A stretch of 64,000 nt of DNA from Liolophura sinensis. Taxonomy: Eukaryota. Of the stretch, positions 4,128 to 61,189 are shown in pieces. Numbering within the stretch: position 1 is the first letter of the stretch; every line of letters starts with the position of its first letter. The notes under the pieces were generated by a model. That model had not been told where the DNA came from, made no database searches, and was given only the letters and a program-made list of their open reading frames with translations. The translations under genes were made by a program, and so were the position numbers. Location of the stretch: contig NC_088295.1 in the NCBI RefSeq assembly GCF_032854445.1, positions 28,692,498-28,756,497 on the forward strand, given 5' to 3'.

Positions 4128-7100
4128 CATAACCGGTAAAATACGGCTCTTGTCGACTTAACCTTACGTAGGGTTTTATTCAGAATATTCATATAAATGC
4201 TTAAAGGGTAGCAGGTAGTATCCTTTAAACAGAATTAGGTATAGGAAGGCAGTGATGCTATTACCAAATATTAAGCGTCTCTGGTCTAGAATTACTCTAA
4301 AAGCTCTGTCGCTACGATATATGTTTAAAGTACTAATAATGGGGCGTTGACAGAAACTTGGGGAGCAAACCCAAATGACGACGAAAGCGTCATATAAAGT
4401 TAGCAAATAGTCACACGTAAATGATGAAATCTGGACTCTTGTCTATTAATTTACGTCCGTTTTTTTTTTTTTTTGCCAGCTGTTCATACAATGTCCAAAA
4501 GCAACAACTTATACTTCCCCTGGCACCATAGCATAAGAAGAATTTGGTAAAGAAAAATTGAGATGACATTAATTGTAATTTATTATACATCAATGGTCTA
4601 GTATTACTCAAAATGCTGTGTTGTCATCACATTTAATAAACATTTACATGAAAATACACGCAAGTAACATGTGTGCATGCAAGGAACAAAGAAATAGTAG
4701 ACAGATACCAGCTGGCCGTTATCCTATATGATTTATTGGATAGGTGTTTTACGCCATAGTCACTTATATTTCACTTATCCGACGGCGGCCATCATTATGA
4801 TGGGAGGAAACCGGGTTTATCCTATATGAAGGTGAAATTCCATGCATGTGCTAAAATAAACTGCACTTCTATTGCATTAAACTTCAAAATGTTCTCTAAT
4901 ACCAAAAATATATGACTTTGTTGACATGCAAGCCTTCATTAAGCACTGCTTTGCTTGAAATAAGAAAATATGCTAACATCATGTTTACATAAGCATATAG
5001 AGTTGTAGACAAAAAGCCACGCGACCATTCATCCACAAGCGAACCTATCACTCCTGCACAATTCTCGTCCGTGTCAAAGCACCGAAGGACAAAGAGGACG
5101 AGATCTTGATAACACCCCAATAGGAAAGTAATAGATTTTTCAACAGCTTGCGGGATGATCGCTTTTCATGTCAGTTTTTAATATTTAGTCAACGAATGGC
5201 CCAGGTGTGGTCGAGTGTTAAGGTAATAGACTAACGTAAGCTACTCGGGCCGGGCTCACACGGGCTCTTTTACAATGGATGAAAAGAGGCATATTTGTCC
5301 AAATGGTTCTTCTGTGTTGCAATCCGTTGCTGATTGTTCTGGGTGTGAACAATATAGGCCGATTGCAATTAAAAGTTAAAGAATTCCTTGTTGACAGTGA
5401 AGAGAGATATAGGCCGATTGAAATGACTATCGGGCTTCGAACCACATCTGTTGCTTCATAGAAGAGGGCTGTGAGATTCTTACGAACTGAGCTCGTCAAA
5501 TAAGCCTATAGTCTGTCAGCATAAGTGTACACTCAAGCGGAACAACATACCAATCCAACAGGACAAACAGATGAAACGAAATAATACAGCTTTTATAATG
5601 ACCTGTCTGAAAGTCTGCAGTGTGGTTAAAGAGTGACCCATCGCTGAGAGGGACAAAGTACTGTGTTTACCTTGAAAACTGGACTACTTCCGACACATTC
5701 TTATTTTGTTATTTAGAATCAAAAGCAAATGCAGGCCTGAAATGTTCTTTACATTAGTCTCTAAATAGAATTTCAATGGCTTCCTTGTTGTATTTTATGA
5801 GTTTCAGCTTGATATATCAGCGTTTTAGCCTCAAATGAAACATATAGTATTAGCTTATTGTTTTGTATCACACTGTTGTCTCTGCTTGGGCTTAACTCAC
5901 TTTTGAAACAAACTGTGGTAAACCGACGAAAGATTGGATTTCAACGTGAATACATGAAAACATTTGCGAACCATGACACCGTCGTCACTGCTCTGGTTTT
6001 ACTCTCTATACTGTATAGCCTTATCTTGTATCCCTGTATAAAAATGGATTTTGCTGGAGAAGTAAGCATCCCCTGTGCCTGGTTCATTTACATTGTTTTC
6101 ATGTTAATGTGTATGGAATGTGATCACAACACAGCATTTTGAGTAACTATGGACCAGTGACATCTAATAAACTGCCTCCTCAACATTAAAATCCTAAATG
6201 AGGTAAACTGTCAAGTGGTTGGATTTAACCGGTAATACGTGTGACCATTTTCCCACTATCACACCATCGTCACTATTGTGTTTTTGCTCTCCATGCTACA
6301 GTATTTTATATTAATATATTTGTCTGTTACCCTATATTGATGTTAGAGTTTTGACTGCTTCATTCGTTATTCTCACCACAAATAAACTATCCGATAACCG
6401 CTGAGGTTACAGGTTCGAACCCCGCTGTCAGATATTTGGATACCTCTTAAAGGTTGAAGGTTTTACACATTGGTGCTTTACTACTTGTGCTTAGGTTTGC
6501 TACACTTTTAAATCTGACTGCCGTCATATAAGTTACGGGTTTAGCATAAATAACAAAAGTTATTGACGTTCATTATAGTATTCAGTGATGTGAGTGCCAG
6601 GGTAAAATCAACGTCCATCACGAAGAGCCTGAAAACCTGACTAGAGGAAGACCAAACAGCGAGAGCTGGATCCGATCCTGTAACCTTTTTGCCCAGGGCC
6701 CAATCAGTTGCTGCGAGAAAAAGTACTTTATGTTAATGTGCCAGCGGGCTACTACTTCTAACCATTACATAAATGGTTTTTAATACGAATGTCTGCTCCG
6801 ATGTATAGATTATATAGTTCCTCCATGTGCCTATATATAGAACAAGCGCCATTACACATGCGCAAAGTTATGTAGTCTTAGAAGATATAGAAAACTGTGG
6901 TCGCTGAGGTCAGAAAGTCACGTTTTAATCTTAGGGGCTGATCCAGGGATTGACTTTGCGTGGCGCCAGGAGTTTGCTTCAGAGCACCTGGCGGTATATA
7001 TGGCCGACGCGCTGGTGTTGCGGAACTCTATCTAGAACAATGCAAAGTGTTGTTTGTGTCAGGAGCTGTGCTGCAGTTTCAATTTGATCATTTGAAATAT

Positions 7101-11640: not shown

Positions 11641-12140
11641 TAGGCCAATGAATGGGAACCACTGGATGGTTCACGAATGCAGGCCGTTGGAAGATTCATG
11701 ACAGTACGGCGTTGGGATGTGCACGAGAGCTGGCCGTTGGGAGGTTCATGAAGGTATCCGTTGGGCTGTTCATGAAAGGGGCGGCCCCAAGGTTCATGAA
11801 AGGGGTGGTTGAAATGATCAACAAAGTGGCCGTTGGAAGGTTCATGAAAGTGGGTCGTTGGGAGGTTCATGAAAGTGGGTCGTTGGGAGGTTCATGGAAG
11901 TGGGTCGTTGGGAGGTTCATGAAAGTGGGTCGTTGGGAGGTTCATGAAAGTGGGTCGTTGGGAGGTTCATGAAAGAAGACCGTTGCATGTTCATGAATGC
12001 AGGCTGTTGGGTGGTTCATGAAAGTGAGCCTTTGGGATGTTTATGAAAACAGGCCGCTGGGAGGTTAATAAAAACAGGCCATTGGGTGGTTCATGAAAGT
12101 TGGCCGTTGGGAGAATCATGAAAGTTGGCTGTTGGGGTGG
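11640..12140. repeat. 25-bp minisatellite, about 19 copies (GAAAGTGGGTCGTTGGGAGGTTCAT and variants)
   Basis: periodic GGTTCATGAAAG; ORF 11652..11972 (VGRFMK repeats) is an artefact. Confidence 0.85.
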
Positions 12141-12529: not shown

Positions 12530-13075
12530 GGATATTCTGGACATTTCGCCCACATTCAATAGCTTGTATTTCTCCTGAACATTTCGCCCACAGTCAATAG
12601 CTTGTATTTCTTCTGGACATTTCGCCCACAGTCAATAGCTTGTATTTCTTCTGGACATTTCGCCCACAGTCAATAGCTTGTATTTCTTCTGGACATTTCG
12701 CCCACATTCAATAGCTTGTATTTCTTCTGGACAATGCGCCCACATTCATTTGCTTGTATTTCTTACGGATAATGTGCCCACATCCATTTGCTTGTATTTC
12801 TTATGGACAATGTGCCCACATCCATTTGCTTGTATTTCTTCTGGACAATGCGCCCACATTCATTTGCTTGTATTTCTTATGGACAATGTGCCCACATCCA
12901 TTTGCTTGTATTTCTTCTGGACAATGCGCCCACATCCATTTGCTTGTATTTCTTATGGACAATGTGCCCATATCCATTTGCTTGTATTTCTTCTGGACAA
13001 TGCGCCCACATTCATTTGCTTGTATTTCTTATGGACAATGTGCCCACATCCATTTGCTTGTATTTCTTCTAAACG
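12530..13075. repeat. 38-bp minisatellite, about 14 copies (ACATTTCGCCCACAGTCAATAGCTTGTATTTCTTCTGG; later variant ACAATGCGCCCACATTCATTTGCTTGTATTTCTTATGG)
   Basis: two subfamilies of units; ORFs 12678..13131 are artefacts. Confidence 0.85.
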
Positions 13076-13136
13076 CTATCATCTTATACAATGAAAAATT
13101 GTACAAGACGGATTGTTCTTCTTCTTCTTAGCCGGG

Positions 13137-13405
13137 GGCCTCCGTGGCTCAGTTGGTTAGCGCGCTGGCGCAGCGTAATGACCCAGGAGCCTCTCACCAA
13201 TGCGGTCGCTGTGAGTTCAAGTCCAGCTCATGCTGGCATCCTCTCCGGTCGTACGTGGGTCGGTCCGGCAGCAGCCAGCGGATGGTCTTAGGTCTCCCCC
13301 GTGCTCTGTCCTGTTTCCTCCCTCCATAATGCTGGCCGCCGTCGTATAAGTGAAATATTCTTGAGTGCAGCGTAAAACATCACTCAAATAAATAAATAAA
13401 TCTTC
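13137..13405 (+). mobile_element. SINE family A, full copy (tRNA-like head GGCCTCCGTGGCTCAGTTGGTTAGCGCG.., conserved core ..CCATAATGCTGGCCGCC.., tail ATAAGTGAAATATTCTTGAG..(AAATA)n)
   Basis: A/B-box-like head and TAAA-rich tail; more than 15 copies or fragments in window, both orientations. Confidence 0.7.
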
Positions 13406-15705: not shown

Positions 15706-16067
15706 ACACACGAACATGTACATCACAAGTTTATCATTAATTGGATATCTATAATGGATACATCAAAAACATGTCATAAACTGGATATCTATAATGGTTA
15801 CATCAAAAACATGTCATAAACTGGATGTCTGTAATGGATATATCCAAAACGTGTGATAAACTGGATATCTATAAAGGATACATCAAAAACATTTCATAAA
15901 CTGGATATCTATAATGGATACATCAAAACATGTCAAACAACTGGATATCTATAATGGATACACCAAGAACATGTCATAAACTGGATATCTTTAATGGATA
16001 CATAAAAAACATGTCATAAACAACTGGATATCTATAATGGATACATCAAAAACATGTCGTACACACA
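15706..16067. repeat. 40-bp minisatellite, about 9 copies (CATCAAAAACATGTCATAAACTGGATATCTATAATGGATA)
   Basis: direct reading. Confidence 0.85.
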
Positions 16068-16194
16068 GACATATCACAGATTCAATTGGCTAGCAACCTT
16101 GCTGGCAAAACAAATATATACCAAACTAACATACTTGTACTTACATGTACATGGATATACTTTATTTCTTATTATACCAAACATAACATAGGGG

Positions 16195-16345
16195 CCTCCA
16201 GATGTATGTGGAAAGGTGTACCAGCAACCCAATAGTCGTGTGTTTCCCCTGCACTCTTCCTGGTTTTCTCCCACCATAATGCTGGCCGCCGATGCATAAG
16301 TGAAATATTCTTGAATACAGTGTAAAACACCACACAAATAAATAA
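16195..16345 (-). mobile_element. SINE family A, 3' part
   Basis: core and tail consensus, reverse orientation. Confidence 0.5.
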
Positions 16346-16766
16346 TAAATAAACATAACAGATGGAATTACAAAAATAAACATATATCGGTATGTGTAAA
16401 ACTATTAATATAGTATCAGTCCACCTGTTGCATATATTTGAACAAATTAATTATTGACGAGTTTTAAACAGGAAAGTGAGATATTACATGGTTCCTGCAA
16501 TTAAATATAAAAAGGATTGCTGTTTTACTTATCACAGCCTATGATTGTACAAAAGGTTGTACACATATTTACAAAAGGAACAAGAAAGCACAACAAGTTA
16601 ACATTTGGAAGATGTAACAAAAGTAAAAAGAAACACAGAGCAGGATGTTCAAAAACAGCAAACACACAGGAAATGGCTTTAATACTTGTACTGTTGTTTT
16701 TGATGGGACTTTTTCGGCCACGTGATTGGACATTGCTTGGCATCCTTCAGGAAAAAGTGCCTATGA

Positions 16767-17086
16767 TTACATAATAAATCCCAACATCTGTGCTGCTGCT
16801 TCTTCCCAGTTACTCCCCAGTTCCAACTGAGAATAAAGTAAAACGTGATCTTTATCCACCTTCAACACAAACTTCCCTGCCAGCAAGATGGAATCTGTAA
16901 ACTTTTGACACTTTGGATGTCCTTTCAAGGCAGCTGAGAGTTTCTTCAATATGGCAGCCAAAGACAGCTCCTCCAGGAATTGGGATCTTGTCACTGGAAA
17001 TGTTGTGGAGGTCAACAGATCCAGCAGCACTAGCAGAGCCATCATGGTCGCCAATACACACATGACCTTCTCACCAACCATTTTAC
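16767..17086 (-). CDS. PARP4: PARP4-like terminal exon (GKMVGEKVMCVLATMMALLVLLDLLTSTTFPVTRSQFLEELSLAAILKKLSAALKGHPKCQKFTDSILLAGKFVLKVDKDHVLLYSQLELGSNWEEAAAQMLGFIM*)
   Basis: acceptor ttaattcacag|GT joins leftover G of previous exon in frame; matches human MVP-interaction region GVKGRECLLDLIATMLVLQF...RLELGNDWDSATKQLLG; stop at 16767-16769. Confidence 0.6.
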
Positions 17087-17159
17087 CTGTGAATTAAAAC
17101 AAACCACTGTTACAATTAACAGTGAAAATACTGGATAAGGTATTTTCATATTAATCTCG

Positions 17160-19892: not shown

Positions 19893-20550
19893 CTCTATCC
19901 TTTTCATATCTGTCTTGTATCCTCTACTGACAGATATCAACAACATGAAGACAGGGGTGAGACAACCACTGACTGGATGAAAGCTGGATCTGTCTTGTAT
20001 CCTCTACTGACAGATATCAACAACATCAAGACAGGGGTGAGACAACCACTGACTGGATGAAAGCTGGATCTGTCTTGTATCCTCTACTGACAGATATCAA
20101 CAACACCAAGACAGGGGTGAGACAACCACTGACTGGATGAAAGCTGGATCTGTCTTGTATCCTCTACTGACAGATATCAACAACACCAAGACAGAAGTGA
20201 GACAACCACTGACTGGATGAAAGCTGGATCTGTCTTGTATCCTCTACTGACAGATATCAACAACACAAGGACAGAAGTGAGACAACCACTGACTGGATGA
20301 AAGCTGGATCTGTCTTGTATCCTCTACTGACAGATATCAACAACATGAAGACAGGGGTGAGACAACCACTGACTGGATGAAAGCTGGATCTGTCTTGTAT
20401 CCTCTACTGACAGATATCAACAACATCAAGACAGGGGTGAGACAACCACTGACTGGATGAAAGCTGGATCTGTCTTGTATCCTCTACTGACAGATATCAA
20501 CAACACCAAGACAGGGGTGAGACAACCACTGACTGGATGAAAGCTGGTTT
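19893..20550. repeat. 90-bp tandem repeat, about 7.3 copies (TCTGTCTTGTATCCTCTACTGACAGATATCAACAACATGAAGACAGGGGTGAGACAACCACTGACTGGATGAAAGCTGGA), in a PARP4-like intron
   Basis: near-identical units differing mainly at the CATGAAG/CATCAAG/CACCAAG position. Confidence 0.85.
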
Positions 20551-22256: not shown

Positions 22257-22587
22257 CTGTAACAATCCGATACTACACATTTTTAATATATGTACATAAT
22301 ATAAAGAATTAGTGTAACCATCATTTATTAAAGTACATATATTTGTAACAGAATTACAATCTTGAAATTTGATGATAAAAAACATTAAGAATAAAAATTA
22401 AAGTATAATGCTAGTACCTTCCTTAACCCTTCAAAAAACAAGGAAATATTTAAAGGGGAAATCATGAAAGAAAACAAAACAAAAAGAGCGAAAACACATG
22501 GGATATATGTTGTACTGTTTGTATGCAGATATACTCTTAGGAGCTGTATCTACAACATAGAATGATTTTGACTTTCAAAAACCCTAC

Positions 22588-24673
22588 CTGTAGAGAGTGA
22601 AGCACCTGACAACATGGCCTCAAAGGCATGGAGGTATTCCACCAGTTTGACATAATCCCACTGTTCCTGTATCACATTCTCAAGGCCTCTTCTATTTGTC
22701 TGTTCACTGGTTTCCACCACAGACTCAAATATACCACTTCTTTTAGTGGTCCTTGATTGACAGCTCTTCAGAGTTTTCCCCAATGATCTAGCTCGTAGTG
22801 TGTTGGATTTCCAAGTATTTGCATGATTTTGTCTGTAGCGACCATCAACCTCTTTTGGCAATTTTAACTTTGAGGGATGCAGTATAGGTCTGGTTCGTGA
22901 ACCATGGCTTAGAAATGGGACATGATGTGACAAACTTTTCTGTGGCACACTGTTGGGATGTGCAATATTGCTCCCAAAGCCTTGACCAAAAGTTTGTCCA
23001 GAATGAGTGTTGTTATTGTTATTATGTAGTTTGCCTCTGCCATTAAAAGTAAAATCTGTCAGAGTAGTGAACTGAGCTCTTCCAGCAGCCCTACCTACAT
23101 CAAAATTTTTAGTTGAAACATTTCCAAAACCAAATGATTGTGCAGGAGCACTGCCAAAACCAGATGTTTGTGCAGGAGCACTGCCAAAACCAGATGTTTG
23201 TGCAGGAGCACGGCCAAAACTAAATGGTTGTGCAGGAGCACTACCAGAACCAGGTGTTTGTGCAGAAGCACTTCCAAAACCAGATGTTTGTGCAGGAGCA
23301 CGGCCAAAACTAAATGATTGTGCAGGAACACTGCCAAAACCAGATGTTTGTGCAGTAGCACTGCCAAAACTAAATGGTTGTGCAGGAACACTGCTAAAAC
23401 CAAATGTCTGAGAAGAACTGCCAAAACCAGATGTTTGTACAGGGGCACTGCCAGAACCTGATGTTTGTGCAGGAGCACTACCAGAACCAGATGTTTGTGC
23501 AGGAGCACTACCAGAACCAGATGTTTGCGCAACAGCACTGCCAAAGCCAGATGTTTGCACAGGAGCACAGCCAGAACCAGATGTTTGTGCAGGAGCACTG
23601 CCTAAACTGGTTGTCTCAGTCAAACTGTTGGAAATCTGAGCATGATCATTAGCAAATTTGCCCATCTTTGCAGGACTGCTTGCACTTGAAACAGGGGTCC
23701 TATCAGAACTGGTTGCACTACTGCCAAAAGAAAAAGGCTTGCCAGAAGAAGCATTAGAACTGATATGAATAGTACTAAGACTATCAATACCACCAGATAA
23801 AGCATTAACAGAACTCATAGACTTAGCAGGAGTACTAGAGGATCTGGCAGTTGTACAGGGAGCACTATCAACGCCAGAAGGCTTGGCCAAAGAACTACTG
23901 AAATGCACAGATGGACAGGAAGTCTTTTCAAAATTTAAAGGCTTAGTCCCAGTGGTAGAGCTGGTAATGAAAGTGGGACTGCTCCCACAGCTAGTCGTTG
24001 TAGAGGGAGTAATATCAACACTAGAAGTCTCAGAAGCAGAACTGGTCTGTGCTAACTTGTTTCCAAACAGGCTTTGAGAACTTCGTATGGTGTTAGATTG
24101 TGTTACATTGTTGCCAAACAGGCTATGAGAGGGCTGTATGGTGTTAGGCTGTGTTACTTGGTTGCCAAACAGGCTTTGAGAGGGCTGTAGGGTGTTAGAT
24201 TGTGAGAGGCTTTGAGAGGGTGGTATGGTGTTGTGCTGTGTTGCTATTTTACCAAACAAACTTTGAGAAGGCTGTGCTTGTACATTGAGTTGTGCTGCTT
24301 TGCTGCCAAACAAACTTTGTGAAGGCTGTACATTGTTAAGCTGTGTTAATTTGTTCTCACACAAAGTTTTATGCAAATATCCACTCTTGGAAAAGAAATC
24401 TGAGTTAGTTCCACAGAGCCCTCTGGAAAACTGAGATGTGCTACCCTCAGATAAACTCTGATTTACAGGATATGTTGGTTTGCAAGTCAACACATCTTGG
24501 GAAGGCTTCTTTTGTTGCAAATGCTTGCTTAAATATCTAGCATTTGATGGTGTAAAATTGTGCATTTTCTTCTGCGAATATCTGTGCTGACTATCAGATA
24601 ACTGTGACTGTTCCTCTGAAGATTCACAATGGTTTTGTGAAGAAGTATCTAAGTCAGATGACTGATCTTCTAT
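22588..24673 (-). CDS. PARP4: PARP4-like large low-complexity exon (about 695 codons). It has SQSLFG-type and SGSAPAQTSGFG-type tandem peptide repeats rich in Ser/Thr/Gln. It is an internal exon that ends at an ACAG|GTAGGG donor, not at the ORF stop.
   Basis: acceptor tgtttatttcag|ATAGAAGAT. Open frame of 2086 nt. Leftover-1 phase joins the next exon in frame. The underlying 36-bp DNA repeat is at 23100-23620. Confidence 0.65.
23100..23620 (-). repeat. Coding minisatellite inside the PARP4-like large exon. The unit is ~36 bp (CCAGATGTTTGTGCAGGAGCACTGCCAAAA on the plus strand) and encodes SGSAPAQTSGFG-type repeats, about 14 copies.
   Basis: periodic 36-bp unit; an open frame is maintained on both strands, and the antisense ORF 23095..23598 is an artefact. 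Confidence 0.7.
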
Positions 24674-24976
24674 CTGAAATAAACACAAAGCAAAAGCACA
24701 TTCTTACACTTGCACATTAACATATTTCTGCAAACAAATGTTCTAACAAACTCATAAGTAATCTTAAGAATGAAAAGTTTGATTTAACTGACAATATCCA
24801 TGTAGCATCAATATTATCTGATTGTCTATGCATCAATCAACAAGAGTTGAATCTATTCTTGTAGCATGTCTATAGAAACATTGAATAAGCCTTTACTTCA
24901 ATTTACGATCCATCCCTCTGCATAAAAGTAAAAATCGCTGGAAACCTTAATTACCCAATGAATTAACAGTACCAAC

Positions 24977-25099: not shown

Positions 25100-25739
25100 C
25101 TGCAAGCAAAATGTGTGAGTTCATGTAACTATAATCCTTTATCTACTTCTCATCTTCCTAACGCTTTCTGTTCTGTCACAACATATGTTGCACCTTATGG
25201 ATAAGTTTTCAACAAAGAATATCACACTTTAATGTTTGCAGCACTGCCATGGGAACTTTGTACATAACTTACATATATTTCCATCAAATATTCCAGTGAG
25301 TTTCAAACATGTACAAAATCTTGTTTATCATCTGAGTCACCAGAGTACTTCAGCAACAATGTTTTAGCAAACTGGATTATGGAGATATAAAACTCCTTTT
25401 GAAAAATACCCTTAGGACTGCTGGACAATTAGGAGATCAGCTCACCTCATGAAGTGTATGATCTGTGTGCAGTATACCATACTGCCAATCCCTGATCAAG
25501 GCATGCGCAGTCAGGCTGTGGAGAATCTGTGGATATACAAAAAGCAGGAGAAACAGCCATATGAGTCACCTACTGTAAACTTCTCCTATATCAGTGATGT
25601 TGATAAACTTTACCACATATCACATTACTGCATTCTTTAACAATGCAGTCCCACATGACACATCCAGACACTTTACATGCACTGTAGCGAAATGAAGCGA
25701 CATACTTAACAATATATAAGTTTGTGTCACTCATGCCAT

Positions 25740-26035
25740 TTGGCTGTAATAAACACTTCTTTATTTATTTGATTAGTATATCACGCTGTGTTCAAGAATA
25801 TTTCACTTACACGAAAGAGGCCAGCATTATGGCCGGAGGAAACCGAGAAGAGCCTGAGGGAAACTGACGACCATCTGCGGGTTGCTAGAAGACCTTCCCA
25901 CCTACAGCCAGTGAGGAAGCCAACCTGAGCTGGACTTAAACTTACAGCAACTGCATTGGTCAGAGGCTCCTGGGTCATTGTGCCGTTCTGGCGTGGTAAC
26001 CACCTCGGCCACAGGGGCCCGCCATAATAAATAAA
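25740..26035 (-). mobile_element. SINE family A, full copy
   Basis: tail ttatttatttgattagt..., core gccagcattatggccggagg, tRNA-like head at 25950-26030. Confidence 0.7.
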
Positions 26036-26263
26036 TCTGAGTCAATTTTTAATACAAGACAAAATATCAATATATTTATTTATCTACATATGTTTACTAT
26101 ATATGACAAAAATGTACATAAAACCTGAGCTGTGTAGTACATATTGTTTCCTCTGTGACACACATATCAGATTTACAACATTTACATATATCCTATAGGA
26201 CACTGTTTTCTATGTGATATGGATTAGGTGGTGACATTTATACCTAATTAATGTGACACTTAC

Positions 26264-26343
26264 TGTTCCCTCTGTGACACACAGATCAGGTGTTGACACC
26301 ACAGTGGACACCTCTTCTCCATTCATACGGCCATTCAAATATG
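26264..26343 (-). CDS. candidate PARP4-like exon (AYLNGRMNGEEVSTVVSTPDLCVTEGT)
   Basis: acceptor cattttaaag, donor ACA|GTAAGT; weak similarity only; intervening exons not found. Confidence 0.2.
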
Positions 26344-26499
26344 CCTTTAAAATGAGAAAAAAATTGTCTGGTGGCTGTAATTCCACTTGTTTGATTGCTG
26401 TTTTACAATGTTCACAATATGACAACTCTATTTTATTTGTTTTATTGATATGTATGTATGTATGCTTGGGGTTTAATGACCTACTTAATTTTTCAGTCG

Positions 26500-26640: not shown

Positions 26641-27039
26641 ACTGTATTTCATCTAAAGTTTGGCCTGTAATAATTCACTTTCAGCAGCACATTAAGGCGT
26701 TACCTGATATTTTTGATGTCAACAGCTTTCCTGATAAGAAATTAATCAAATTTCACAAAAAAGTTGTCCTAAAAGGTGAATGAATCAATCAGAATCAAGC
26801 AAAATGCTAAACTTTAGGTCAAATACAATAAATAAATAAATACACTTTTCAGTCATATGATGAAGAGGGGTCATTACGTGTGTACATGTACTGTGCCTTC
26901 TTGTGGCAGGACGAGTCGATGCTGATAAAATGGTGCTGCCACTGAAGAATCATGCCAAAGACATCAGATATGACACCCCACCAACTCACACTCACTAACA
27001 AATACTATTTTTTTTAAAAGTCTGTGGAATGACCCAATC

Positions 27040-27195
27040 CGGGTTTGATTGGTGTTTTCACGACATACTCCAGAGTATTTAATTATACGATGGAGGCCTG
27101 CATTATGATGGGAAGAAACCAGACAGAGCGCGGGGAAAAACCAAGGTCATCTGCAGGTTGCTGACCACTCTAACATACAGAATGGGAAGAAAGCC
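27040..27195 (-). mobile_element. SINE family A, partial
   Basis: tail and core; immediately flanks the 102-bp array. Confidence 0.45.
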
Positions 27196-27329: not shown

Positions 27330-29005
27330 TTACCAACATCTTGGAGAACAGCAGGACTTTGTTCAGGGAAGACAGTGTCACTTACCACAGTACAGTTCTG
27401 AACAAAGCCATACACGACATCTGGACCCAGGGTAAAGGTTTTGGAGAACAGCGGGACTTTGTTCAGGGAAGGCAGTGTCACTTACCACAGTACAGTTCTG
27501 AACAAAGCCATACACGACACATCTGGAGCCCAGGTACAGGTTTTGGAGAACAGCAGGACATCGTTCAGGGAAGGCAGTGTCACTTACCACAGTACAGTTC
27601 TGAACAAAGCCATACACGACACATCTGGATCCAGAGTAAAGGTTCTGGAAAACAGCGGGAATTTGGGAAGGGAGTGTCACTTACCACAGTACAGTTCTGA
27701 ACAAAGCCATACACGACACATCTGGATCCAGAGTAAAGGTTCTGAAGAACAGCGGGACTTTGTTCAGGGAAGGCAGTGTCACTTACCACAGTACAGTTCT
27801 GAACAAAGCCATACACGACACATCTGGATCCAGAGTAAAGGTTCTGAAGAACAGCGGGACTTTGTTCAGGGAAGGCAGTGTCACTTACCACAGTACAGTT
27901 CTGAACAAAGCCATATACGACCCATTTGGATCCAGAGTAAAGGCTTTGGAGAACAGCAGGACATCGTTCAGGGAAGGCAGTGTCACTTACCACAGTACAG
28001 TTCTGAACAAAGCCATACACGACACATCTTGACCCAGAGTAAAGGTTCTGGAGAACAGCGGGACTTTGTTCAGGGAAGAGAGTCTCACTTACCACAGTAC
28101 AGTTCTGAACAAAGCCATACACGACACATCTGGACCCGGGGTAAAGGTTCTGGAAAACAGCGGGAATTTGGGAAGGGAGTGTCACTTACCACAGTACAGT
28201 TCTGAACAAAGCCATACACGACACATCTGGACCTGGGGTAAAGGTTTTGGTGAACAGCGGGACTTTGTTCAGGGAAGGCAGTGTCACTTACCACAGTAAG
28301 AGTTCTGAACAAAGCCATACACGACACATCTGGATCCAGAGTAATGGTTCTGGAGAACAGCGGGACTTTGTTCAGGGAAGGCAGTGTCACTTACCACAGT
28401 ACAGTTCTGAACAAAGCCATACACGACACATCTGGACAGGAATAAAGGTTCTGGAGAACAGCGGGACTTTGTGCAGGGAAGGCAGTGTCACTTACCACAG
28501 TACAGTTCTGAACAAAGCCATACACGACACATCTGGACCCAGAGTAAAGGTTCTGGAGAACAGCGGGACTTTGTTCAGGGAAGAGAGTCTCACTTACCAC
28601 AGTACAGTTCTGAACAAAGCCATACACGACACATCTGGAGCCAGGGTACAGGTTTTGGTGAACAGCAGGGCATCGTTCAGGGAAGGGAGTGTCACTTACC
28701 ACAGTACAGTTCTGAACAAAGTCATACACGACACATCTGGATCCAGAGTAAAGGATCTGGAGAACAGCGGGACTTTGTGCAGGGAAGGCAGTGTCACTTA
28801 CCACAGTACAGTTTTGAACAAAGCCATACACGACACATCTGGATCCAGAGTAATGGTTCTGGAGAACAGCGGGACATCATTCAGGGAAGGGAGTGTCACT
28901 TACCACAGTACAGTTCTGAACAAAGTCATACACGACACATCTGGACCCAGGGTAAAGGTTTTGGTGAACAGCGGGACTTTGTTCAGGGAAGGCAGTGTCA
29001 CTTAC
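27330..29005 (-). repeat. Tandem array, about 16.4 copies of a 102-bp unit. The unit is the last 84 nt of the PARP4-like exon 29006-29176 plus the first 18 nt of the intron, including the GTAAGT donor. Each unit is 34 codons and keeps an open frame.
   Basis: unit (minus strand) CCTGAACAAAGTCCCGCTGTTCTCCAGAACCTTTACTCTGGATCCAGATGTGTCGTGTATGGCTTTGTTCAGAACTGTACTGTG|GTAAGTGACACTGCCTTC; the first copy is continuous with unique exon sequence. Confidence 0.8.
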
Positions 29006-29176
29006 CACAGTACAGTTTTGAATAAAGCCATACACGACACATCTGGATCCAGAGTAAAGGTTCTGGAGAACAGCGGGACTTTGTTCAGGGAAGGGAAGGT
29101 CAGGCTCAAACTGCTGCCATGTCATGGTTAGATTAGTGACACATGGGTTTGAAGCCTTCTTCAGCAACTCTGATAT
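29006..29176 (-). CDS. PARP4: PARP4-like exon (ISELLKKASNPCVTNLTMTWQQFEPDLPFPEQSPAVLQNLYSGSRCVVYGFIQNCTV) followed by GTAAGT donor; its 3' 84 nt plus 18 nt of intron is the unit of the downstream 102-bp tandem array
   Basis: 171 nt phase 0; acceptor ttgtttcaccag; matches human QIEDQMTRLCSPSCHSVSVKWQQLNPDVPEALQAPAQVPSLFLNDRLLVYGFIPHCT. Confidence 0.65.
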
Positions 29177-37393: not shown

Positions 37394-37618
37394 CTGGTTT
37401 GTAGTACTCTGTTCCAGTAAACAGGCTCCCTGTCCTTCTTCTATAGCTTCATTGTATATCTGGTGAGCAGCTTTAACTTCCTCAATCTTCCCGTAGATGC
37501 GCTGGTCATTGATAACTGCCTCAAACCCTGTGATGGCACACAACTCATCCACAGGGAAATGATACTGACCTTGGATTGTCTCATTGCTGTCATTGATGTA
37601 AGTTTGAATTAAGTTGAC
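37394..37618 (-). CDS. PARP4: PARP4-like VIT domain exon (VNLIQTYINDSNETIQGQYHFPVDELCAITGFEAVINDQRIYGKIEEVKAAHQIYNEAIEEGQGACLLEQSTTNQ)
   Basis: 225 nt, acceptor cactgttcag, donor CAG|GTACGA; canonical VIT motif pattern. Confidence 0.7.
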
Positions 37619-37759
37619 CTGAACAGTGAATAACACAATACACAGATATTAGAGTGCTGCAAGTGTGACAGCTTATTGATGTCATGTGATAACAAATAGC
37701 TCTAAAATCTACATACATCTATAATGTGTGTGGTTAAATCTGGGAAATCTGAATGCTTT

Positions 37760-37930
37760 TTAATTACAACCAGCTAAGGCTGTATATTGTAAGGTCTGCC
37801 AGCAAACCTCTGGATGAGAGTAGGTATCCCCAGGCTTTGCATAGTTTCCTCTCACCATAATCTTCGCCGCTGACCTATAGGTAAAATATTCTTGGGAATG
37901 GCGTAAAAACACCAATTAATCAAATAAATT
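37760..37930 (+). mobile_element. SINE family A, 3' part
   Basis: core and tail. Confidence 0.45.
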
Positions 37931-38055
37931 ACAACCAGTCATGGTTTGGAACTGAAATAAGTGCACAACGGGAAGAAAACATATATAAAAACACTCACAC
38001 TAGTATATCACTAAACAAATAAATTGTCTGTATTTAAACAAGTGACATTCTTTAC

Positions 38056-38177
38056 CTCGGCTATCATGTCCATTACTTTTGCTTGAACAGCAATAGAACA
38101 CACAGGAAGGTAGTTTGAGTTGTCTCCCCCTTTTGACACCCCGACTCTCCACTGTTCATGTCTTGTTTTAAGGTCAT
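38056..38177 (-). CDS. PARP4: PARP4-like exon, start of VIT domain (..DDLKTRHEQWRVGVSKGGDNSNYLPVCSIAVQAKVMDMIAE)
   Basis: acceptor ctttctggacag, donor GAG|GTAAAG; continues into VIT exon. Confidence 0.55.
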
Positions 38178-38861
38178 CTGTCCAGAAAGTTTAATTGTAT
38201 ATATAAATTAACAAATATCTGTAAAAAGTCATACTGGTTGGTATCTTAACTGATTTTTAAGACATACTTTCCATCAAAGGGTCACTTTAACCAGTACTAA
38301 CTGCATCGTGCAATAATCATTCTGATCACCACAACACTAGCTGGTACAGCTTTTGTGAGGTTTTACAAGAATTCAGAAACTATCACCATCTGCACCTAAC
38401 CCTTTTGTATATAGGATCAATATGTACCTCACCCTTTACCACACGTGACACAACATTAATCCTTCTGCTCAAGATATATACGTAGATACAAAACGAAGAT
38501 GACTCATTAGTGATGTCACCGCTGCCAAATCTACATAATTAAAGGGATACAGAATCAACGCTGATTGCGTGACTAATGAGTTAGGGTTTCCTGGGTTAAA
38601 TCCTTCAGCTGTGGTCACGGTTGAATAAATGTACCATACAGGTACAGAATTGATTCTGTATCCCTTTATAACAATATGCAATTGTTTAAATAAACCACAC
38701 TGCAACACCTAAGGTCCTCAGGAATATACCTGGCATATGTAAAGTCAATCATATGAATGGTTGTGGAGAAAATTAAGGACAGATATACAGAGATAACAGG
38801 TACTTCAGGTTTTATACAATATTCTAGTCACAAATAAACAGAAACTCTGCAACTGGAATAC

Positions 38862-39087
38862 CTTCTTCAGATGAAGTGCTACTCCTCCTCTGCTGCTTGA
38901 CAGCATTCATGGAATAGTCCCCTACAGTTCTGAAATAATTCCTGAGTAATAATCCGTGATCAGCAGGGGCAGATATCGTACTCAGGCTGCCAACCTCATC
39001 CATATCCTCAAGTAACCTCTGTACAGCCTCAGAGCCATCACAACCTCCATGCAGGACAAGTTCTACCAAATAAACTGAACCCTGTGC
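38862..39087 (-). CDS. PARP4: PARP4-like exon (AQGSVYLVELVLHGGCDGSEAVQRLLEDMDEVGSLSTISAPADHGLLLRNYFRTVGDYSMNAVKQQRRSSTSSEE)
   Basis: acceptor cccctttcag, donor GAAG|GTATTC; long open frame. Confidence 0.45.
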
Positions 39088-39652
39088 CTGAAAGGGGCCA
39101 TAAGGAACAGAGTAAAGACCAGTACAATTATCTTTCCATATCAAAGAAAAGAAGGCTAAAAAGCCTAATTTCCCTGTGATAGCTTAATGGTGTCTACCGA
39201 TAGCAAGGCAGTCACAATAATCTTGTCTTCATAATGCAGTCACTGAGGAATCATTGACTTGACACCTGGACACATATGACACATATATCCACCCTATTAC
39301 AGAATACTCACAGAGACAACAACTCACAGTAATCTCCAAAAAGATCTGTCATTGATTCATTCGGCTACAGTAGATCAGCCCCTGACCTATGATGTTTCAG
39401 GCTCAACCATTACTAGTTGGTTTGGCAGCAGTTTTAAGTGAAAAGGTTTGTGGTTCAAAAGATGATAGTTTATTTCTGTTTACTCAATCCATAAAGTGTT
39501 ATAAGTGAGAATTTCTAATCACATAAATGTAAATCGATAAGTAATGTCTCAAAACATTTTACACACCAGTATGCATGTATTTAATACATGCACTTCTCTT
39601 CAGGCTTTCAGTTTTAAAAAAAAAACTTATAAATATACAGAGGATAATTTAC

Positions 39653-39734
39653 CTTGTCTTCTGTAGATGCTTCACTAACAAACACAAACTGAGTTTTGCG
39701 CACAGTACTGATTTCCCAGCATTCCTCAGTTAAC
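39653..39734 (-). CDS. PARP4: PARP4-like exon (LTEECWEISTVRKTQFVFVSEASTEDK)
   Basis: acceptor ctattcag, donor AAG|GTAAAT; open frame. Confidence 0.4.
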
Positions 39735-40277
39735 CTGAATAGTTAAGCGGAGTAAAATAATTAAGTTCCTGAAAGAACGCCCTTATTTACCCATAGGCTA
39801 ATTATTTTTAAAATATTATTCTCTTGATTAATATTTTAACTGATTTTTTTTTTAAATTTAATGTTTTTCAGTAAAACCATGTTAATTTATGCGTAGAGGC
39901 AGGGAAATAGGGCTTAGACAATAAACAGGTGATGAGAACAGTGTATATAACAATATATACCTACAGTAAAGTAACAGAAGATCTACACTCTATCTCACAA
40001 ATCACATACATGTACTTGGCTTTTTAGTTGCACAAATGGAAGACCATACCAATTTTAATTGTTGTTTTATGGGAATAAATCAATGTCTGGAGAGAGCATA
40101 AACATAAGTAAAACACGAAAATAAACTCATTTATGGAATCATTTATGGAAATGACTATCTTGGTAAGTTTTTCTTGTTGAAGACATAGCTGCATGACAGG
40201 AAAGCATTAAAGAACAATAAAATCATAAAAACATCAAGATCGTACAATACAAAGGTGGATTTTCAGTTCATAGATAC

Positions 40278-40349
40278 CTTTCATCAGACTTGTTAACACC
40301 TTGCCTGCTCAAACACAATCCTGACATTAGCGCTCGTTCAGAGAGATCG
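40278..40349 (-). CDS. PARP4: PARP4-like candidate catalytic-domain exon (..DLSERALMSGLCLSRQGVNKSDE; resembles PARP ILSQGLR/ILCRGLL motif)
   Basis: acceptor attttag, donor AAAG|GTATCT; weak motif similarity only. Confidence 0.3.
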
Positions 40350-41110
40350 CTAAAATATGCAAATTAAGTATACCGGTATAAGAATTTATATATGCATCAA
40401 ATTTCACACTACATACAGGATAATAACATATCAGTACACACAAATGTGTATGTTGTACATGTAACATAGCAGATTGTATTGGCAATATATATGATCAGGC
40501 AAATGGGGATTTCCCTTTCCCACAGTGACAGAAGCACAGGATGGGGGCTATGGTCCCATAATGCTAAAACCCCATCACGGTCACCCCAAGCAGGATGCTA
40601 CAATGAAGAATCACTGATGGTTGGTGTGTTGCTTGGTTCACTGCCTTTACATGAAGGGCTACATGTAGGAGGGTACAATGCACTGGCTCTCTACGACTGA
40701 GACAACATAAAGTTTCCGTTTGAAAAGTGGTAGAAGCTAGGGGTACACTTGCAAAGGTCGATGGTTCAAACCCCAAATACATCCTCAGAGTCACAAAAGT
40801 CATCGCTATCATTACATCTGTATCACAGTCAAATCAAACCACTTTTACATAAAAAATGTCAGAAGATTTTCACTGACAATTCAGGAATGTTAAACCTCTG
40901 CTAGATGTTAAGGATGTATGTGGTAACAGCCCAGAAAGGATGAAAACAAGACTTACATACATATTAATTTCAAGATTACACTCATTTGAACTACACATAA
41001 ACCTGACTGCGACCATATGAAAACTTCTTCATTGTTTAAGACCTATCATGAATCTCTCTCACTATCTACAAACCATGAACATACACTGCACATATAAAGG
41101 ACATTCATAC

Positions 41111-41248
41111 CTGCATAAAATTGCCAGAATGAGATGTGCATTCACTGGGTAAAATGTATAGACAACCTCTGTGGGTAGATTCTCCAGGACATCCTCGCTG
41201 GAAAACTTCTGTATCAAATACATGCTTTTGATGTCTTTGATGTGGGCT
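41111..41248 (-). CDS. PARP4: PARP4-like exon 8 (AHIKDIKSMYLIQKFSSEDVLENLPTEVVYTFYPVNAHLILAILC); phase relative to exon 7 unresolved
   Basis: acceptor ttaaacag, donor CAG|GTATGA. The protein-like frame is offset by 1 from the exon-7 phase. A mini-exon, an alternative site or an indel is unaccounted for. Confidence 0.4.
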
Positions 41249-42177
41249 CTGTTTAAAAAATAAAACATAACTTCTTCTCTGTGCCTCATTCACTTGGATG
41301 GTCCAAACTAAAAACAAAAATTTCCTAAGTGTTTTCAGAAATTTGCAAAGTGCTTTGGTTTATACAAGTGATATCCATTTATAATGTCATTATCACCAAC
41401 AATCGGATTTAAACTGGATGCTGTTAAATGGCAGAAGTTAGCTGCAGTTTACACAAAATGTGAACTCATTTGGCTGACTGCATCTAATAGATAAGACCTA
41501 GAAATGTATGAGGAAAATTCAAATAAGCATTTCAGTTTCTTTACCTTCACAGTTCTAACATTTCTAAAGAGGTTATGCTCTAGTGCGGAATTTAAATGTA
41601 GAAACCTAGCACCATGAGTTACCTGGAACGTACAGACTGTTCATTGTTTTGGAAACATTTACTTTTCTTTTCATCATGAACTTTTCCACTCTAAAATGCA
41701 ACGAAACTCTTTTAACCTACTTATTTACAAACCTGGAGTGGAGAGCAGACTCCACCTGTCTAAATCTTTGGGTGTGTGGTTTTAAGGGACAAAACCTCCA
41801 TCTGAAAGATAGGCCCAAGTCCCAAGGGTTCAGGTTTTCAGAAAAACTTTCTGACAGAGAAAGAGTTCCCCTGATAAACTGTAACAGGATACAACATACA
41901 AATATGAATAAATCCCTGAATCTGTTTGCATGTTTAGACCATCGTTACCTTTCCATATCATAACAAACTTCTCTTTCTAAACAAAACGGTAATCTTTATG
42001 AAGCCATTGTAACTAACCCAGCCATGCCAGTTAGTTGTAAGAAAAACTCTTTTTATGTCAAGCATAAAGCTATAAAATTGTTTTCAATAGAAAACAAGTT
42101 ACCAGATGTGAAACTTAATCCACCACTACGCAGGTATATTTGTAATAAAACTTAAATTTCCATGATGTTACACGTAC

Positions 42178-42354
42178 ATGGCAGAGATCTTGTTTCTGGG
42201 CTATGATGGCCTGTGTGTCCACTGTGAACTGATGTGCTGGAGAATGGGGCAAAGCTTGGTAAAATGAGGTGGACAAGAATTCTACTTTGTTTCTATCACT
42301 TTCTTCCTGCAGCTCTTCTCTCAGAAGTTCCAAAATTCCCATAGCTTTTACAAC
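42178..42354 (-). CDS. PARP4: PARP4-like exon 7 (VVKAMGILELLREELQEESDRNKVEFLSTSFYQALPHSPAHQFTVDTQAIIAQKQDLCH)
   Basis: acceptor tatcag, donor CAT|GTACGT; matches human EGILLLVKAAL...EFYRLIPH...KKADLCQ. Confidence 0.6.
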
Positions 42355-44574: not shown

Positions 44575-44990
44575 AACATGTTCAACATACACACGCACTG
44601 TCATGCACCATAATCCGTGACCTAAAGCACCATAATCTATGACCTCACGCACCACAATCCATGACCTCATGCACCACAATCCGTGACCTCATGCACCATA
44701 ATCCGTGATCTCATGCACCACAATCCCTGACCTCATGCACCACAATCCCTGACATCATGCACCGTTATCCTTCACCTCATGCACCATAATCCGCGACCTC
44801 ATGCACCACAATCCCTGACATCATGCACCGTTATCCTTCACCTTATGCACCACAATCCATGACCTCATGCACCATAATCTGTGACCTCATGCACCACAAT
44901 CCCTGACCTCATGCACCACAATCCCTGACATCATGCACCGTTATCCTTCACCTCATGCACCATAATCCCTGACCTCATGCTCTGTTGCCT
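44575..44990. repeat. 22-bp minisatellite, about 19 copies (GCACCACAATCCCTGACCTCAT) with a 66-bp higher-order variant (..GCACCGTTATCCTTCACCTCAT), in PARP4-like intron 2
   Basis: direct reading. Confidence 0.85.
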
Positions 44991-45852: not shown

Positions 45853-46729
45853 ATCTACAGGTGCTATTATAACCAAGATGGCACCGTAGTGATATTTCTG
45901 AAAATATCAAATATACATGACAAACATACATGTAAATAGTATTAAATGGGTGACTATCAACAAATAACAGTTAGCTTCAGTTTCACAGTATAATAACTGG
46001 TTACCTGTACTTGATTTTAAATTTGATAATAGAAGGTAGTACACACTCCATGAAGCTCAACTATCTACATGTATAGCTATTATTTACAGAGAGATATGTG
46101 ACACATTTACTCATCATGAAGTGGTGAGTAATTAAGTTATCCTTTTTATGTATCCTTATAATGATCGACCATATCCAGTATCTGATAGAGAAGGTGGCTA
46201 AATTAGGGATGCTGACTGGTTATATTTTCAAGAAGGCATCAATTTACATGTCACCATGTGAAAAAAAAATTAGTAAATGATGTTGGAATGTAACAGAATT
46301 TGTTTGGAAATATTAAACTGAATACGCATTTTTGTGTCACTAAATTCTGTTGGCATGTTGTTTATTAAGCAAAGATACATTAGATAGGTTTCAAATACTT
46401 GATCAACACATTGAAATAATGTGCATCACAGTGATCAATGTTAAGCCATGCTGTCATGTTGCAGAGGTACCTGACAGAACTATTAATGTACCATACCTTA
46501 CATAAGTTACCTACCCGTACTGTGCATAATTCCATTTAGTTTAAAATCTGACACAAATAACACTACTGGTACACCTAACAATTTTGCAGAGTTCTGATAA
46601 CAACAAGAGATAGTAGTTCAATCTGGTCTCTAAATACATACTATATGACATATACTGATACAGTGTGTGTTGAGATATCAGATTCTAACTTTGACTGGAC
46701 TAAGAAAATAGATAAGAGCTAGCTCAAGC

Positions 46730-51340: not shown

Positions 51341-51624
51341 GTATGTCAGATGAAGAAAAAGAAATCTTGATTGAACTATTTCAGTTGTTATTGCATGGGT
51401 TAAGATTGGGAAAGGAGAGAATAGAATTAGTGTATAATGTCTCTAACTATTCAGGGGTTTTTGTTCTTATTTGAAGCTGGCTCCATTTAACCAGCTGAAA
51501 ATTCTCTGTCTCCTTAATATGTTGTTATTAGGGATAATATTTATTGAAATACTAGCATTCATATGCTTATGCGTCAGGAACAATCTCTTTTTGGGGCCCA
51601 TTTTGCCATGCAGGTTAACTAGTG

Positions 51625-51855
51625 CGACAAAATGACCCAGTAGTCTTTCACCAATGTGGTTACTGTAAGCTCAAGTCTAGCTCATGCTGGCTTCCTCTCC
51701 GGCTGTATGTGGGTATATCTCTCAACAGCCTGCAGATGGTTGTAGGTTTCCCCCGTGCTCTGCCTGGTTTCCTCCCACCATAATGCTGGCTTCCATCGTA
51801 TAGGTAAAATATTCTTGAATAAGGCGTAAAACACCAATCAAATAAATAAATAAAT
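51625..51855 (+). mobile_element. SINE family A copy (in ashwin intron 3)
   Basis: head, core and tail with (aaata)n. Confidence 0.6.
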
Positions 51856-52139
51856 CTCTCTCTTTTTTTAAAAAAAAAAAACAGGGATATATAAATATTA
51901 ATAAATGATGCATACAAATATATTTGTAACTATGTGTATCCAGAACTTCAACTTAAGGTTATAATAGAGCAATAGTATTTTTTTTTCTTTTATAGCAGTT
52001 CTTGGATATGTAATTGAATAGTTTCTGATTTTTAATTGTCATGTTTTAGCTTGTTGATTTGTCTGCTTGTGAGCTGTGGAAGTATCGAACACTATCCAAA
52101 TTTTAATTCTTTTTGTGTTTTCTCTTTGTAATGTTGCAG

Positions 52140-60740: not shown

Positions 60741-60759
60741 AGTAAGGTAGAATGACAGG

Positions 60760-61065
60760 TGGTTTATTTATTTATGTATTTATTTGATTGGTGTTTTACA
60801 CCATACTGAAGAATATTTCACTTGTATGACGGCGGCCAGCATTATGGTATGGCGAAACCAGACAGAGCCCGGAGGGAAACCTACGATCATCTGCAGGTTG
60901 CTGCAGACCCCCATCCCACTTACAGCTGGAGAGGAAGTAAACAAGGGCCGAAGAGGAAGTAAACAAGGGCTGGATTTGAACTCACAGCAAGTGCATTGGT
61001 GGGAGACCCCTGGGTCATGGCGCTGCACTGGCGTGCTAAACCCATCAACCAAAAGGCCCTTGAAT
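60760..61065 (-). mobile_element. SINE family A, full copy (between the two HSP70 genes)
   Basis: tail (ttta)n, core gccagcattatggtatgg, tRNA-like head; ORFs 60780..61134 are artefacts. Confidence 0.7.
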
Positions 61066-61189
61066 GTCACGTGGTGTCTGTATGTGTGTTGCTCATGTGA
61101 TACCTCTGCCAATTGTTTTCCTATAGAGAGGTGACATATTTGACATTTTTACCACTGTAAATACAAATAACAAATGTACCTCTAAATAC

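Follow-up and report, generated by a model that had tools for sequence, protein, structure and literature searches.

The minus strand of a 64,000-nucleotide (nt) stretch of the genome of Liolophura sinensis, a chiton, contains a PARP4-like gene in which the 3' end of one exon is repeated, together with its 5' splice site (donor), head-to-tail into the following intron. The whole stretch (contig NC_088295.1, positions 28,692,498 to 28,756,497; G+C content 39%) is called the window below, and all coordinates are counted from its first base. A tblastn search of the window with the RefSeq protein XP_064611003.1, which has 2150 aa and is annotated as 'protein mono-ADP-ribosyltransferase PARP4-like [Liolophura sinensis]', placed the gene at 16770-45854 (minus). 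About 30 exons were recovered, many at 100% identity, from the start codon at 45854 (MKMFKNLS) down to 16770, the end of the last coding exon.

The PARP4-like gene and its repeated exon

Pfam matches above cut-off were obtained for BRCT (PF00533, PF16589), VIT, and VWA, and Nucleoporin_FG was also found. XP_064611003.1 scored 102.5 bits for VIT and 61.9 bits for VWA_3, with exon-level matches as well. An N-terminal BRCT domain and a VIT domain followed by VWA are both features of PARP4. The match to PARP_reg was weak (19.8-24.6 bits, below the cut-off of 26.8), and the PARP catalytic domain, which in PARP4 follows the regulatory domain, was not found: PF00644 was undetected in XP_064611003.1 and in crude six-frame Pfam scans of 38.7-42.5 kb, which gave only weak PARP_reg, and the oyster and amphioxus catalytic domains (both with PF00644) showed no BLASTP or tblastn similarity in the chiton gene. 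The gap (37600-42200, minus; residues 351-612) reflects either a decayed pseudo-PARP or mis-modelled exons.

A profile search over 1.84 billion representative proteins gave 1,808 matches at E<=1e-30, with VIT-VWA at about residues 700-1300 in proteins of 1,400-2,500 aa. The nearest relatives are annotated as PARP4 and have the same domain order; relatives bearing the name come from Lemur, Camelus, Caretta, Lytechinus (sea urchin), Magallana (oyster), and Branchiostoma (amphioxus). Orthology and domain architecture therefore justify the name 'PARP4-like'. A word-indexed search returned nothing for the 57-aa exon peptide and only distant homologues (<=36% identity) for a 505-aa concatenate; this search misses XP_064611003.1 even though the protein is in the collection, and its negatives are uninformative on transcripts and source species. 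PARP4 (vault PARP) also has a C-terminal region that interacts with the major vault protein, for which Pfam offers no model; the C-terminal exon of the chiton gene (16770-17087) had no family match in Pfam. An exon of ~2.1 kb (a 717-codon open frame) at 22553-24703 (minus) encodes S/T-rich, FG-type repeats with motifs such as ...APAQTSGFGS... and QPSQSLFG... and matches Nucleoporin_FG in Pfam; it contains coding minisatellites at 23124-23607 (30 bp x16) and 24057-24204 (51 bp x2.9).

The exon from which the repeats start lies at 29006-29176 (minus). It has 171 nt, is phase 0-0, and encodes ISELLKKASNPCVTNLTMTWQQFEPDLPFPEQSPAVLQNLYSGSRCVVYGFIQNCTV, as judged from splice signals and homology. 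Its acceptor is TTTCACCAG|, also read GTTTCACCAG|ATA, and its donor is GTG|GTAAGT. The exon peptide aligns to 40 PARP4-family proteins; the assignment to this family made in a preliminary description of the window was borne out, with PARP4 homologues from lemur, camel, turtle, sea urchin, oyster, and amphioxus aligning across the exon. The next conserved exon (26264-26344, minus; 81 nt, phase 0-0) encodes AYLNGRMNGEEVSTVVSTPDLCVTEGT and has the acceptor TTTTTTTCTCATTTTAAAG| and the donor ACA|GTAAGT; high-scoring segment pairs with homologues start exactly at 26344. It is followed by another 81-nt, phase 0-0 exon at 25446-25526 (minus), encoding ILHSLTAHALIRDWQYGILHTDHTLHE.

Anatomy and turnover of the 102-bp array

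Tandem Repeats Finder (TRF) reported a 102-bp tandem array at 27342-29094 (minus) with 17.3 copies, 90% matches, 1% indels, and a score of 2844. This is the single dominant repeat of the region, and the unit list, alignment, and identity matrix agree with it. An exact motif search found GTGGTAAGTGA 17 times on the minus strand without any variant, so the preliminary description of 17 tandem copies, each with its donor, and of their place in the window was correct. All 17 donors read GTG|GTAAGTGA, and the spacings between them are 102 nt (11 times), 101, 103, 97, 97, and 100 nt. GGTAAGT occurs 18 times on the minus strand of the window vs 5 times on the plus strand; 17 of the 18 minus-strand occurrences are inside the array, a clustering that is not due to chance.

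In unit 1, ~87 nt come from the 3' end of the exon and ~15 nt from the start of the intron; in the alignment, homology starts at ~29092-29094. Units 2-17 and a partial 18th unit are intronic, and the partial unit (~45 nt) closes the array at 27342. It had been claimed that the exon 3' end is reiterated with its GTAAGT donor into the intron down to 27330, in units of 84 exonic and 18 intronic nt. The reiteration is evident from the unit list and the alignment; the general extent and the mixed exon/intron composition also held, with the end and the proportions corrected to the values given here. The authentic, most upstream donor occupies 29000-29008 (minus), with 29006 as the last exon base, as placed by the motif search and by the position and phase of an intron in the clam Tegillarca discussed below. 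The 16 pseudo-donors, GTG|GTAAGTGA, are identical to it in the exact motif search and span 27377-28906 (minus). Their last 'exonic' bases are 28904, 28802, 28700, 28598, 28496, 28395, 28292, and 28190 (donors 2-9), and 28093, 27991, 27889, 27787, 27685, 27588, 27486, and 27386 (donors 10-17).

Five of the 17 units are off-size: units 7, 8, 10, 15, and 17 have 101, 103, 97, 97, and 100 nt, and the frame is therefore repeatedly broken. The first in-frame stop, a TGA at 28877-28879 (minus), is in unit 3, as had been reported, and ends the frame for donors 3-17. Long open reading frames (ORFs) run through the array on both strands, again as described, and result from its periodicity.

Two acceptor-like motifs, TGTTCTCCAG| and TTTGTTCAG|, lie upstream of the donor in each unit, and TGTTCTCCAG| is present in 11 copies, the authentic exon's own included. 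The two motifs define potential 57-nt and 12-nt pseudo-exons per unit. An inverted repeat, CTGAACAAAG...CTTTGTTCAG, was also observed inside each unit; both arms are intact in most array copies, but the real exon has mismatches in the second one (CTTTATTCAA). When three units were folded, the low folding energy (z = -4.9) was attributable to this inverted repeat. A conserved hairpin was rejected: in the alignment, no other part of the unit varies as much as arm A, and compensatory change is absent. As a speculation, the inverted repeat might have favoured slippage.

The array lies head-to-tail with many monomers inside a gene, its first monomer extends across an exon-intron boundary, and the donor is reiterated in the intron, with 17 identical copies of GTGGTAAGTGA. 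These are the structural criteria of the junction-spanning minisatellites, with monomers from tens to about 100 bp, known from human genes, and the chiton array is an instance of that class, which has already been described. Tandem and mutually exclusive exon arrays are similar in that coding sequence is duplicated in tandem within a gene, along with splice signals. They differ in that they consist of complete exons with an intact frame, whereas the chiton copies begin within the exon and hold only its 3' part and donor; the authentic acceptor is uncopied, and the frame is lost through the five off-size units and the stop in unit 3.

Pairwise identity among units 2-17 ranges from 81 to 100%, with the maximum reached solely by the pair 13 and 14. 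Units 6 and 11 agree at 99%, and units 10 and 15 (97%) have a common 5-bp deletion. When units 6-10 are compared pairwise with units 11-15, the identities are 99, 87, 96, 93, and 97%, which suggests duplication of a five-unit block. Such a pattern is typical of unequal exchange or slippage that goes on over time, and the array is neither brand new nor static. The suggestion that it is a recent intragenic minisatellite expansion is therefore best supported as to the expansion, and only in part as to its being recent, given the 81-100% identities.

It has to be considered whether the array, or its length, is an artefact of assembly. Mis-assembly is common for tandem repeats, and units 13 and 14 are identical. 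Against this, the units are distinguishable, differ by up to 19%, and carry unit-specific indels. Published PacBio HiFi reads of L. sinensis (SRX20411988; mean 8.3 kb), from which the window would have been assembled, span the 1.75-kb array. We regard an artefact of this kind as very improbable; a gross one is unlikely, and the exact copy number may differ between haplotypes. Copy number in minisatellites of this class varies between alleles; the chiton array was analysed in one assembly, and population resequencing of L. sinensis exists (PMC13334032).

The direction of derivation can be read from the conservation of the exon. The repeated exon part, FPEQSPAVLQNLYSGSRCVVYGFIQNCT, aligns to a conserved QAP...LF.GSR.VVYGF..C block in 40 PARP4-family representatives. 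Joining donor 1 to the 26345/26344 acceptor gives ...VVYGFIQNCTV|AYLNGRMNGEEVSTVVST..., whose alignment with 40 PARP4-family proteins, of animals as different as mammals and molluscs, has no gap across the junction. The preliminary description had proposed looking for the array in related species. In Tegillarca, an intron is present at the same codon boundary and phase (NCLM|GTATGA) and is followed by a 27-aa exon; this orthologous intron (~620 nt, locus L001) has no array. Family conservation and the matching Tegillarca intron argue that the exon is ancient, that donor 1 is the ancestral splice site, and that the array is derived from the exon. The reverse, with an older satellite or mobile-element repeat taken up as the exon's 3' end, is a formal possibility and nothing more. 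The recruited-satellite case was rejected on the conservation of the repeated coding segment in PARP4 across Metazoa, and the unit is found nowhere else in the window; we give the reverse direction a negligible probability. An Rfam scan of 26.0-30.5 kb at E<=1 gave no match, and the unit had no exact match in Joint Genome Institute metagenome contigs; with no other copies in the window, it is therefore not a dispersed element. A copy of a SINE-like (short interspersed nuclear element-like) dispersed repeat was noted ~200 nt downstream of the end of the array.

Donor choice and coding consequences

The consequence of using each donor was computed. Donor 1 leaves the ORF intact, and the predicted canonical junction (donor 1 to 26344) is ...ATTCAAAACTGTACTGTG|GCATATTTGAATGG, also written ...TTTATTCAAAACTGTACTGTG|GCATATTTGAATGG. 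Donor 2 also keeps the ORF, adding 34 aa (VSDTAFPEQSPAVHQNLYPGSRCVVYDFVQNCTV) through the predicted junction ...GACTTTGTTCAGAACTGTACTGTG|GCATATTTG; it is the sole array donor with an uninterrupted in-frame extension. Donors 3-17 all meet the TGA at 28879-28877, and the frame also shifts at units 7, 8, 10, 15, and 17. Two earlier ideas are therefore unsupported beyond one unit: that each copy is an in-frame pseudo-exon extension, when five of the 17 units are not 102 nt long, and that donor choice adds 34-aa segments in a graded series, when only donor 2 retains the ORF. The family-invariant YGF motif is changed from G to D (YDF) in units 2 and 4.

In the reading that we favour, and hold to be highly probable, the array is a near-neutral, junction-spanning intronic minisatellite, and functional mRNA is made from the first donor. 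A 102-bp segment (~87 nt of exon 3' end, the GTG|GTAAGT donor, and ~15 nt of intron) would have been duplicated in tandem and then expanded to 17.3 copies, most likely by replication slippage or unequal crossing-over, multi-unit steps included. The spliceosome would still pair the exon's acceptor with the first donor that it meets. Everything downstream, the 16 identical pseudo-donors included, would be removed as intron, and a normal PARP4-like mRNA would result. The duplication would have been tolerated because the exon's acceptor can still pair with the first donor. Little or no use of the pseudo-donors is expected: from donor 2, an in-frame addition of 34 aa would result, and donors 3-17 would give premature-stop transcripts, likely substrates of nonsense-mediated decay. 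Strong protein-coding constraint on the copies is absent.

Minisatellites with the first monomer across an exon-intron boundary have been described in human F7, LMNB2, PDGFA, CBS, and IFI6 (Borensztajn et al., 2006; PMC1557585), and in these genes splicing goes from the most upstream donor, in some cases along with one or two of those that follow it (PMC1557585). In intervening sequence (IVS) 7 of F7, the unit is 37 bp long and present in 5-9 copies; mutagenesis showed that the pseudo-sites are functional but silent, losing to the most upstream site, and that inactivation of upstream sites shifts splicing to the next one and raises exon skipping (PMC1557585). F7 resembles the chiton array in its boundary-crossing first monomer and in the identical pseudo-donors that follow the authentic donor, but its unit includes only 4 exonic nt and has a weak donor, TGG|GTGGGT. 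The chiton unit has ~87 exonic nt, and its copies therefore resemble coding sequence and mislead ORF and gene finders. The closest cases in both unit size and copy number are LMNB2 (100 bp, 10-15 copies) and PDGFA intron 4 (81 bp, 16-18 copies), in which monomers of similar size reiterate the junction and fill much of the intron; the chiton array differs in gene, exon, and phylum, and has a perfect GTAAGT donor. The authentic donor alone is reported to be used in PDGFA (PMC1557585) and also in LMNB2, as that paper relates by citing de Stanchina et al. (1997).

Several observations weigh against the favoured reading. That donor 1 is the donor used in vivo is something we infer from the analogy with F7, LMNB2, and PDGFA and from collinearity with homologues. 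The sole public gene model, XP_064611003.1, lacks the canonical junction and includes a 115-nt segment of the array. This array-internal RefSeq 'exon' (28292-28406, minus) begins at TTTGTTCAG| in unit 7, passes over donor 7, and is closed by donor 8. The model also extends the next exon upstream by 53 nt (26345-26397, minus), using an A-rich acceptor, TGTAAAACAG|. Joining 29176-29006, 28406-28292, 26397-26264, and 25526-25446 reproduces residues 996-1161 of XP_064611003.1 exactly. The two additions, 115 + 53 = 168 nt, restore the frame and give a 56-aa insertion. The junctions on this path are ...CAAAACTGTACTGTG|AACTGTACTGTGGTAAGTG, also written ...CAAAACTGTACTGTG|AACTGTACTGTGGTAAG (donor 1 to 28406), and ...AACTCTTACTGTG|CAATCAAACAAGTGG, also written ...AACTCTTACTGTG|CAATCAAACAAG (donor 8 to 26397). 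If the RefSeq model rests on RNA-seq, pseudo-sites would have to be in use.

It is thus conceivable that the array serves a real PARP4-like isoform through alternative donors or pseudo-exons, either along the RefSeq path (+56 aa) or through donor 2 (+34 aa); by either path, the isoform would gain a duplicated conserved GSR.VVYGF segment. The RefSeq model takes exactly such a frame-preserving path, and the sequence of its unit-8 donor, AACTCTTACTGTG, is unique and permits unambiguous read mapping. Donor 2 keeps the ORF, and acceptor-like TGTTCTCCAG| and TTTGTTCAG| precede the unit donors. Human IFI6 and CBS offer a precedent: in IFI6 (6-16) intron 2 and in the 31-bp variable number tandem repeat of CBS IVS13, there are 15-25 pseudo-donors, of which the first two are also used constitutively (PMC1557585). 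These minisatellites likewise span the junction with many pseudo-donors; in the chiton, however, only donor 2 could keep the ORF.

The 56-aa insertion was found in none of 40 aligned PARP4-family homologues, and none of these has any insertion at the junction. The RefSeq path depends on the A-rich TGTAAAACAG|, whereas the canonical acceptor TTTTTTTCTCATTTTAAAG|, just 53 nt downstream, is strong and conserved in position, follows a much better pyrimidine tract, and is where homologues align. Simpler in-frame paths, e.g., 114-nt pseudo-exons through units 5, 6, 9, and 11-14, are ignored by the model, a behaviour resembling frame rescue by a gene predictor. Unit 2, which donor 2 would add, carries the G to D change in the invariant YGF motif, and the LMNB2 and PDGFA precedents point to sole use of the authentic donor. 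The 56-aa insertion is probably a frame-rescuing prediction artefact arising from coding-like repeats; a real minor isoform is possible. In all, we consider use of the array in a real isoform unlikely.

Variation among the copies bears on both the coding and the regulatory possibilities. Variable columns in the exon-derived part number 6, 8, and 10 at codon positions 1, 2, and 3, without a third-position bias. The variants comprise 13 synonymous, 16 non-synonymous, and 2 stop changes. The synonymous class is in mild excess over the 23% expected at equal rates (p ~0.015 by our estimate), and the excess weakens to p ~0.1 if 30% is expected under transition bias. The donor-proximal block TCCAGATGTGTCGTGTATGGCTTTGTTCAGAACTGTACTGTG|GTAAGTGA varies at 10 of 51 columns vs 27 of 52 in columns 9-60, and the low-variation ~50 nt around the donor also hold the acceptor-like TTTGTTCAG|. 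A circular-window shuffle gave p ~0.0006 for this unevenness, a value that is overstated since the copies are related by descent. The uneven variation and the synonymous excess are the remaining points in favour of use. Weak selection is one possible source of either pattern; common descent of the copies and a bias towards transitions are others that can give rise to both. Selection on splice signals or mutational heterogeneity may account for the donor-proximal conservation, and overall there is no convincing protein-level constraint on the copies.

A regulatory role has also been considered. The array would then act as a decoy, its 17 strong U1-binding sites or unproductive pseudo-exons slowing or blocking removal of the intron, and would tune PARP4-like expression via intron retention or nonsense-mediated decay. 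Each of the 17 donors has seven contiguous predicted base pairs to U1 (G-1 to T+6), most lie 57 nt downstream of an acceptor-like CTCCAG|, and the copies are conserved in the half of the unit next to the donor. However, the orthologous Tegillarca intron has no array, and an array that does occur in the Tegillarca gene is at a different exon; no conserved regulatory need is therefore visible. The indels and point changes of the copies are as expected under neutral turnover, and the F7 pseudo-sites do not compete with the first donor (PMC1557585). We judge a decoy function, and the tuning of expression that would follow from it, to be quite improbable.

More broadly, array pseudo-exons or donor 2 might be spliced in a regulated way, so that the array is not inert, as the 115-nt RefSeq exon might suggest; this has a small chance of being correct. 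If so, the outcome would be either a chiton-specific isoform in which the GSR.VVYGF segment is present twice, or a tuning of expression by way of unproductive transcripts, and weak selection would keep the donor-proximal half of every unit (TTTGTTCAG with GTAAGT).

Recurrence, neighbouring features, and significance

An array of the same kind was found in the PARP4-like gene of Tegillarca granosa (CM056596.1), at 4946-5438 of locus L001, with a 95-bp period, 5.2 copies, and 94% match. It consists of the 3' end of the exon ...VEVAIEMPFDIREIECTSHKIRMK, its AAG|GTAAGT donor, and ~20 nt of intron, copied into the intron. The period of 95 is not a multiple of 3, which excludes a coding role for this array. 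It lies at a different exon of the homologous gene and is independent in origin from the chiton array. Its copies end in ATGAAG|GTAAGT, a more diverged copy follows at ~5430-5480, and the annotated protein uses the first donor. A homologue in Ridgeia (locus L002) was tried as a further case and rejected: its intronic GGTAAGT-like arrays are simple TGTGTCACTG-type repeats and are not exon-derived.

Tandem repeats cover ~8% of the window and, by our sum, roughly a quarter of the Tegillarca locus. With such cover and dozens of exon boundaries per gene, some overlaps with junctions are expected by chance. Among duplications that overlap an exon, those that include the donor would be the most likely to survive, the mRNA being left unchanged through use of the first donor.

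Other repeats and genes were noted in the window. Further minisatellites are present in introns of the PARP4-like gene at 19908-20547 (80 bp x8, 97% identity) and 44601-44980 (22 bp x17), and downstream of the gene at 12535-13070 (38 bp x14), 11668-12136 (25 bp x19), and 15734-16058 (40 bp x8). The SINE-like dispersed repeat has many copies on both strands, with a translated motif ...IFHLYDGGQHYGGRKPG... or ...QQPADDRGFP...; examples are at 13073-13405, 16077-16450, 25784-26048, 26967-27146, 51619-51952, and 60751-61148. Upstream of the PARP4-like gene are two tandem HSP70 B2-like genes at 57312-59208 (minus) and 63040-64000 (minus). An HSP70 ORF here and the L. sinensis HSP70 B2-like cluster share 96% identity. 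The complete copy has a frame change near 58885-58898, ~8 nt short relative to the L. sinensis protein (KPRVQVEY vs KPG/VEY), and is either a pseudogene copy or the product of an assembly indel. The old oyster 'PARP4' model K1PUC2 has C-terminal Actin and HSP70 fragments, which match the window at 57636-57941 and 63364-63669; adjacency of PARP4 and HSP70 may be conserved between oyster and chiton, or K1PUC2 may be a fusion artefact.

The array leaves current knowledge of splicing and of PARP4 unchanged. It presents an annotation hazard: the current RefSeq protein carries a 56-aa array/intron insertion unlike any other PARP4. It is also a natural test case for the choice among 17 identical, perfect GTAAGT donors 102 nt apart in an invertebrate, and five L. 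sinensis tissue RNA-seq libraries exist (PRJNA973839; SAMN35319765-69). The finding extends a class that has been described mainly in a handful of human genes. With the clam as a second case, repeat-rich mollusc genomes probably generate junction-spanning arrays regularly.

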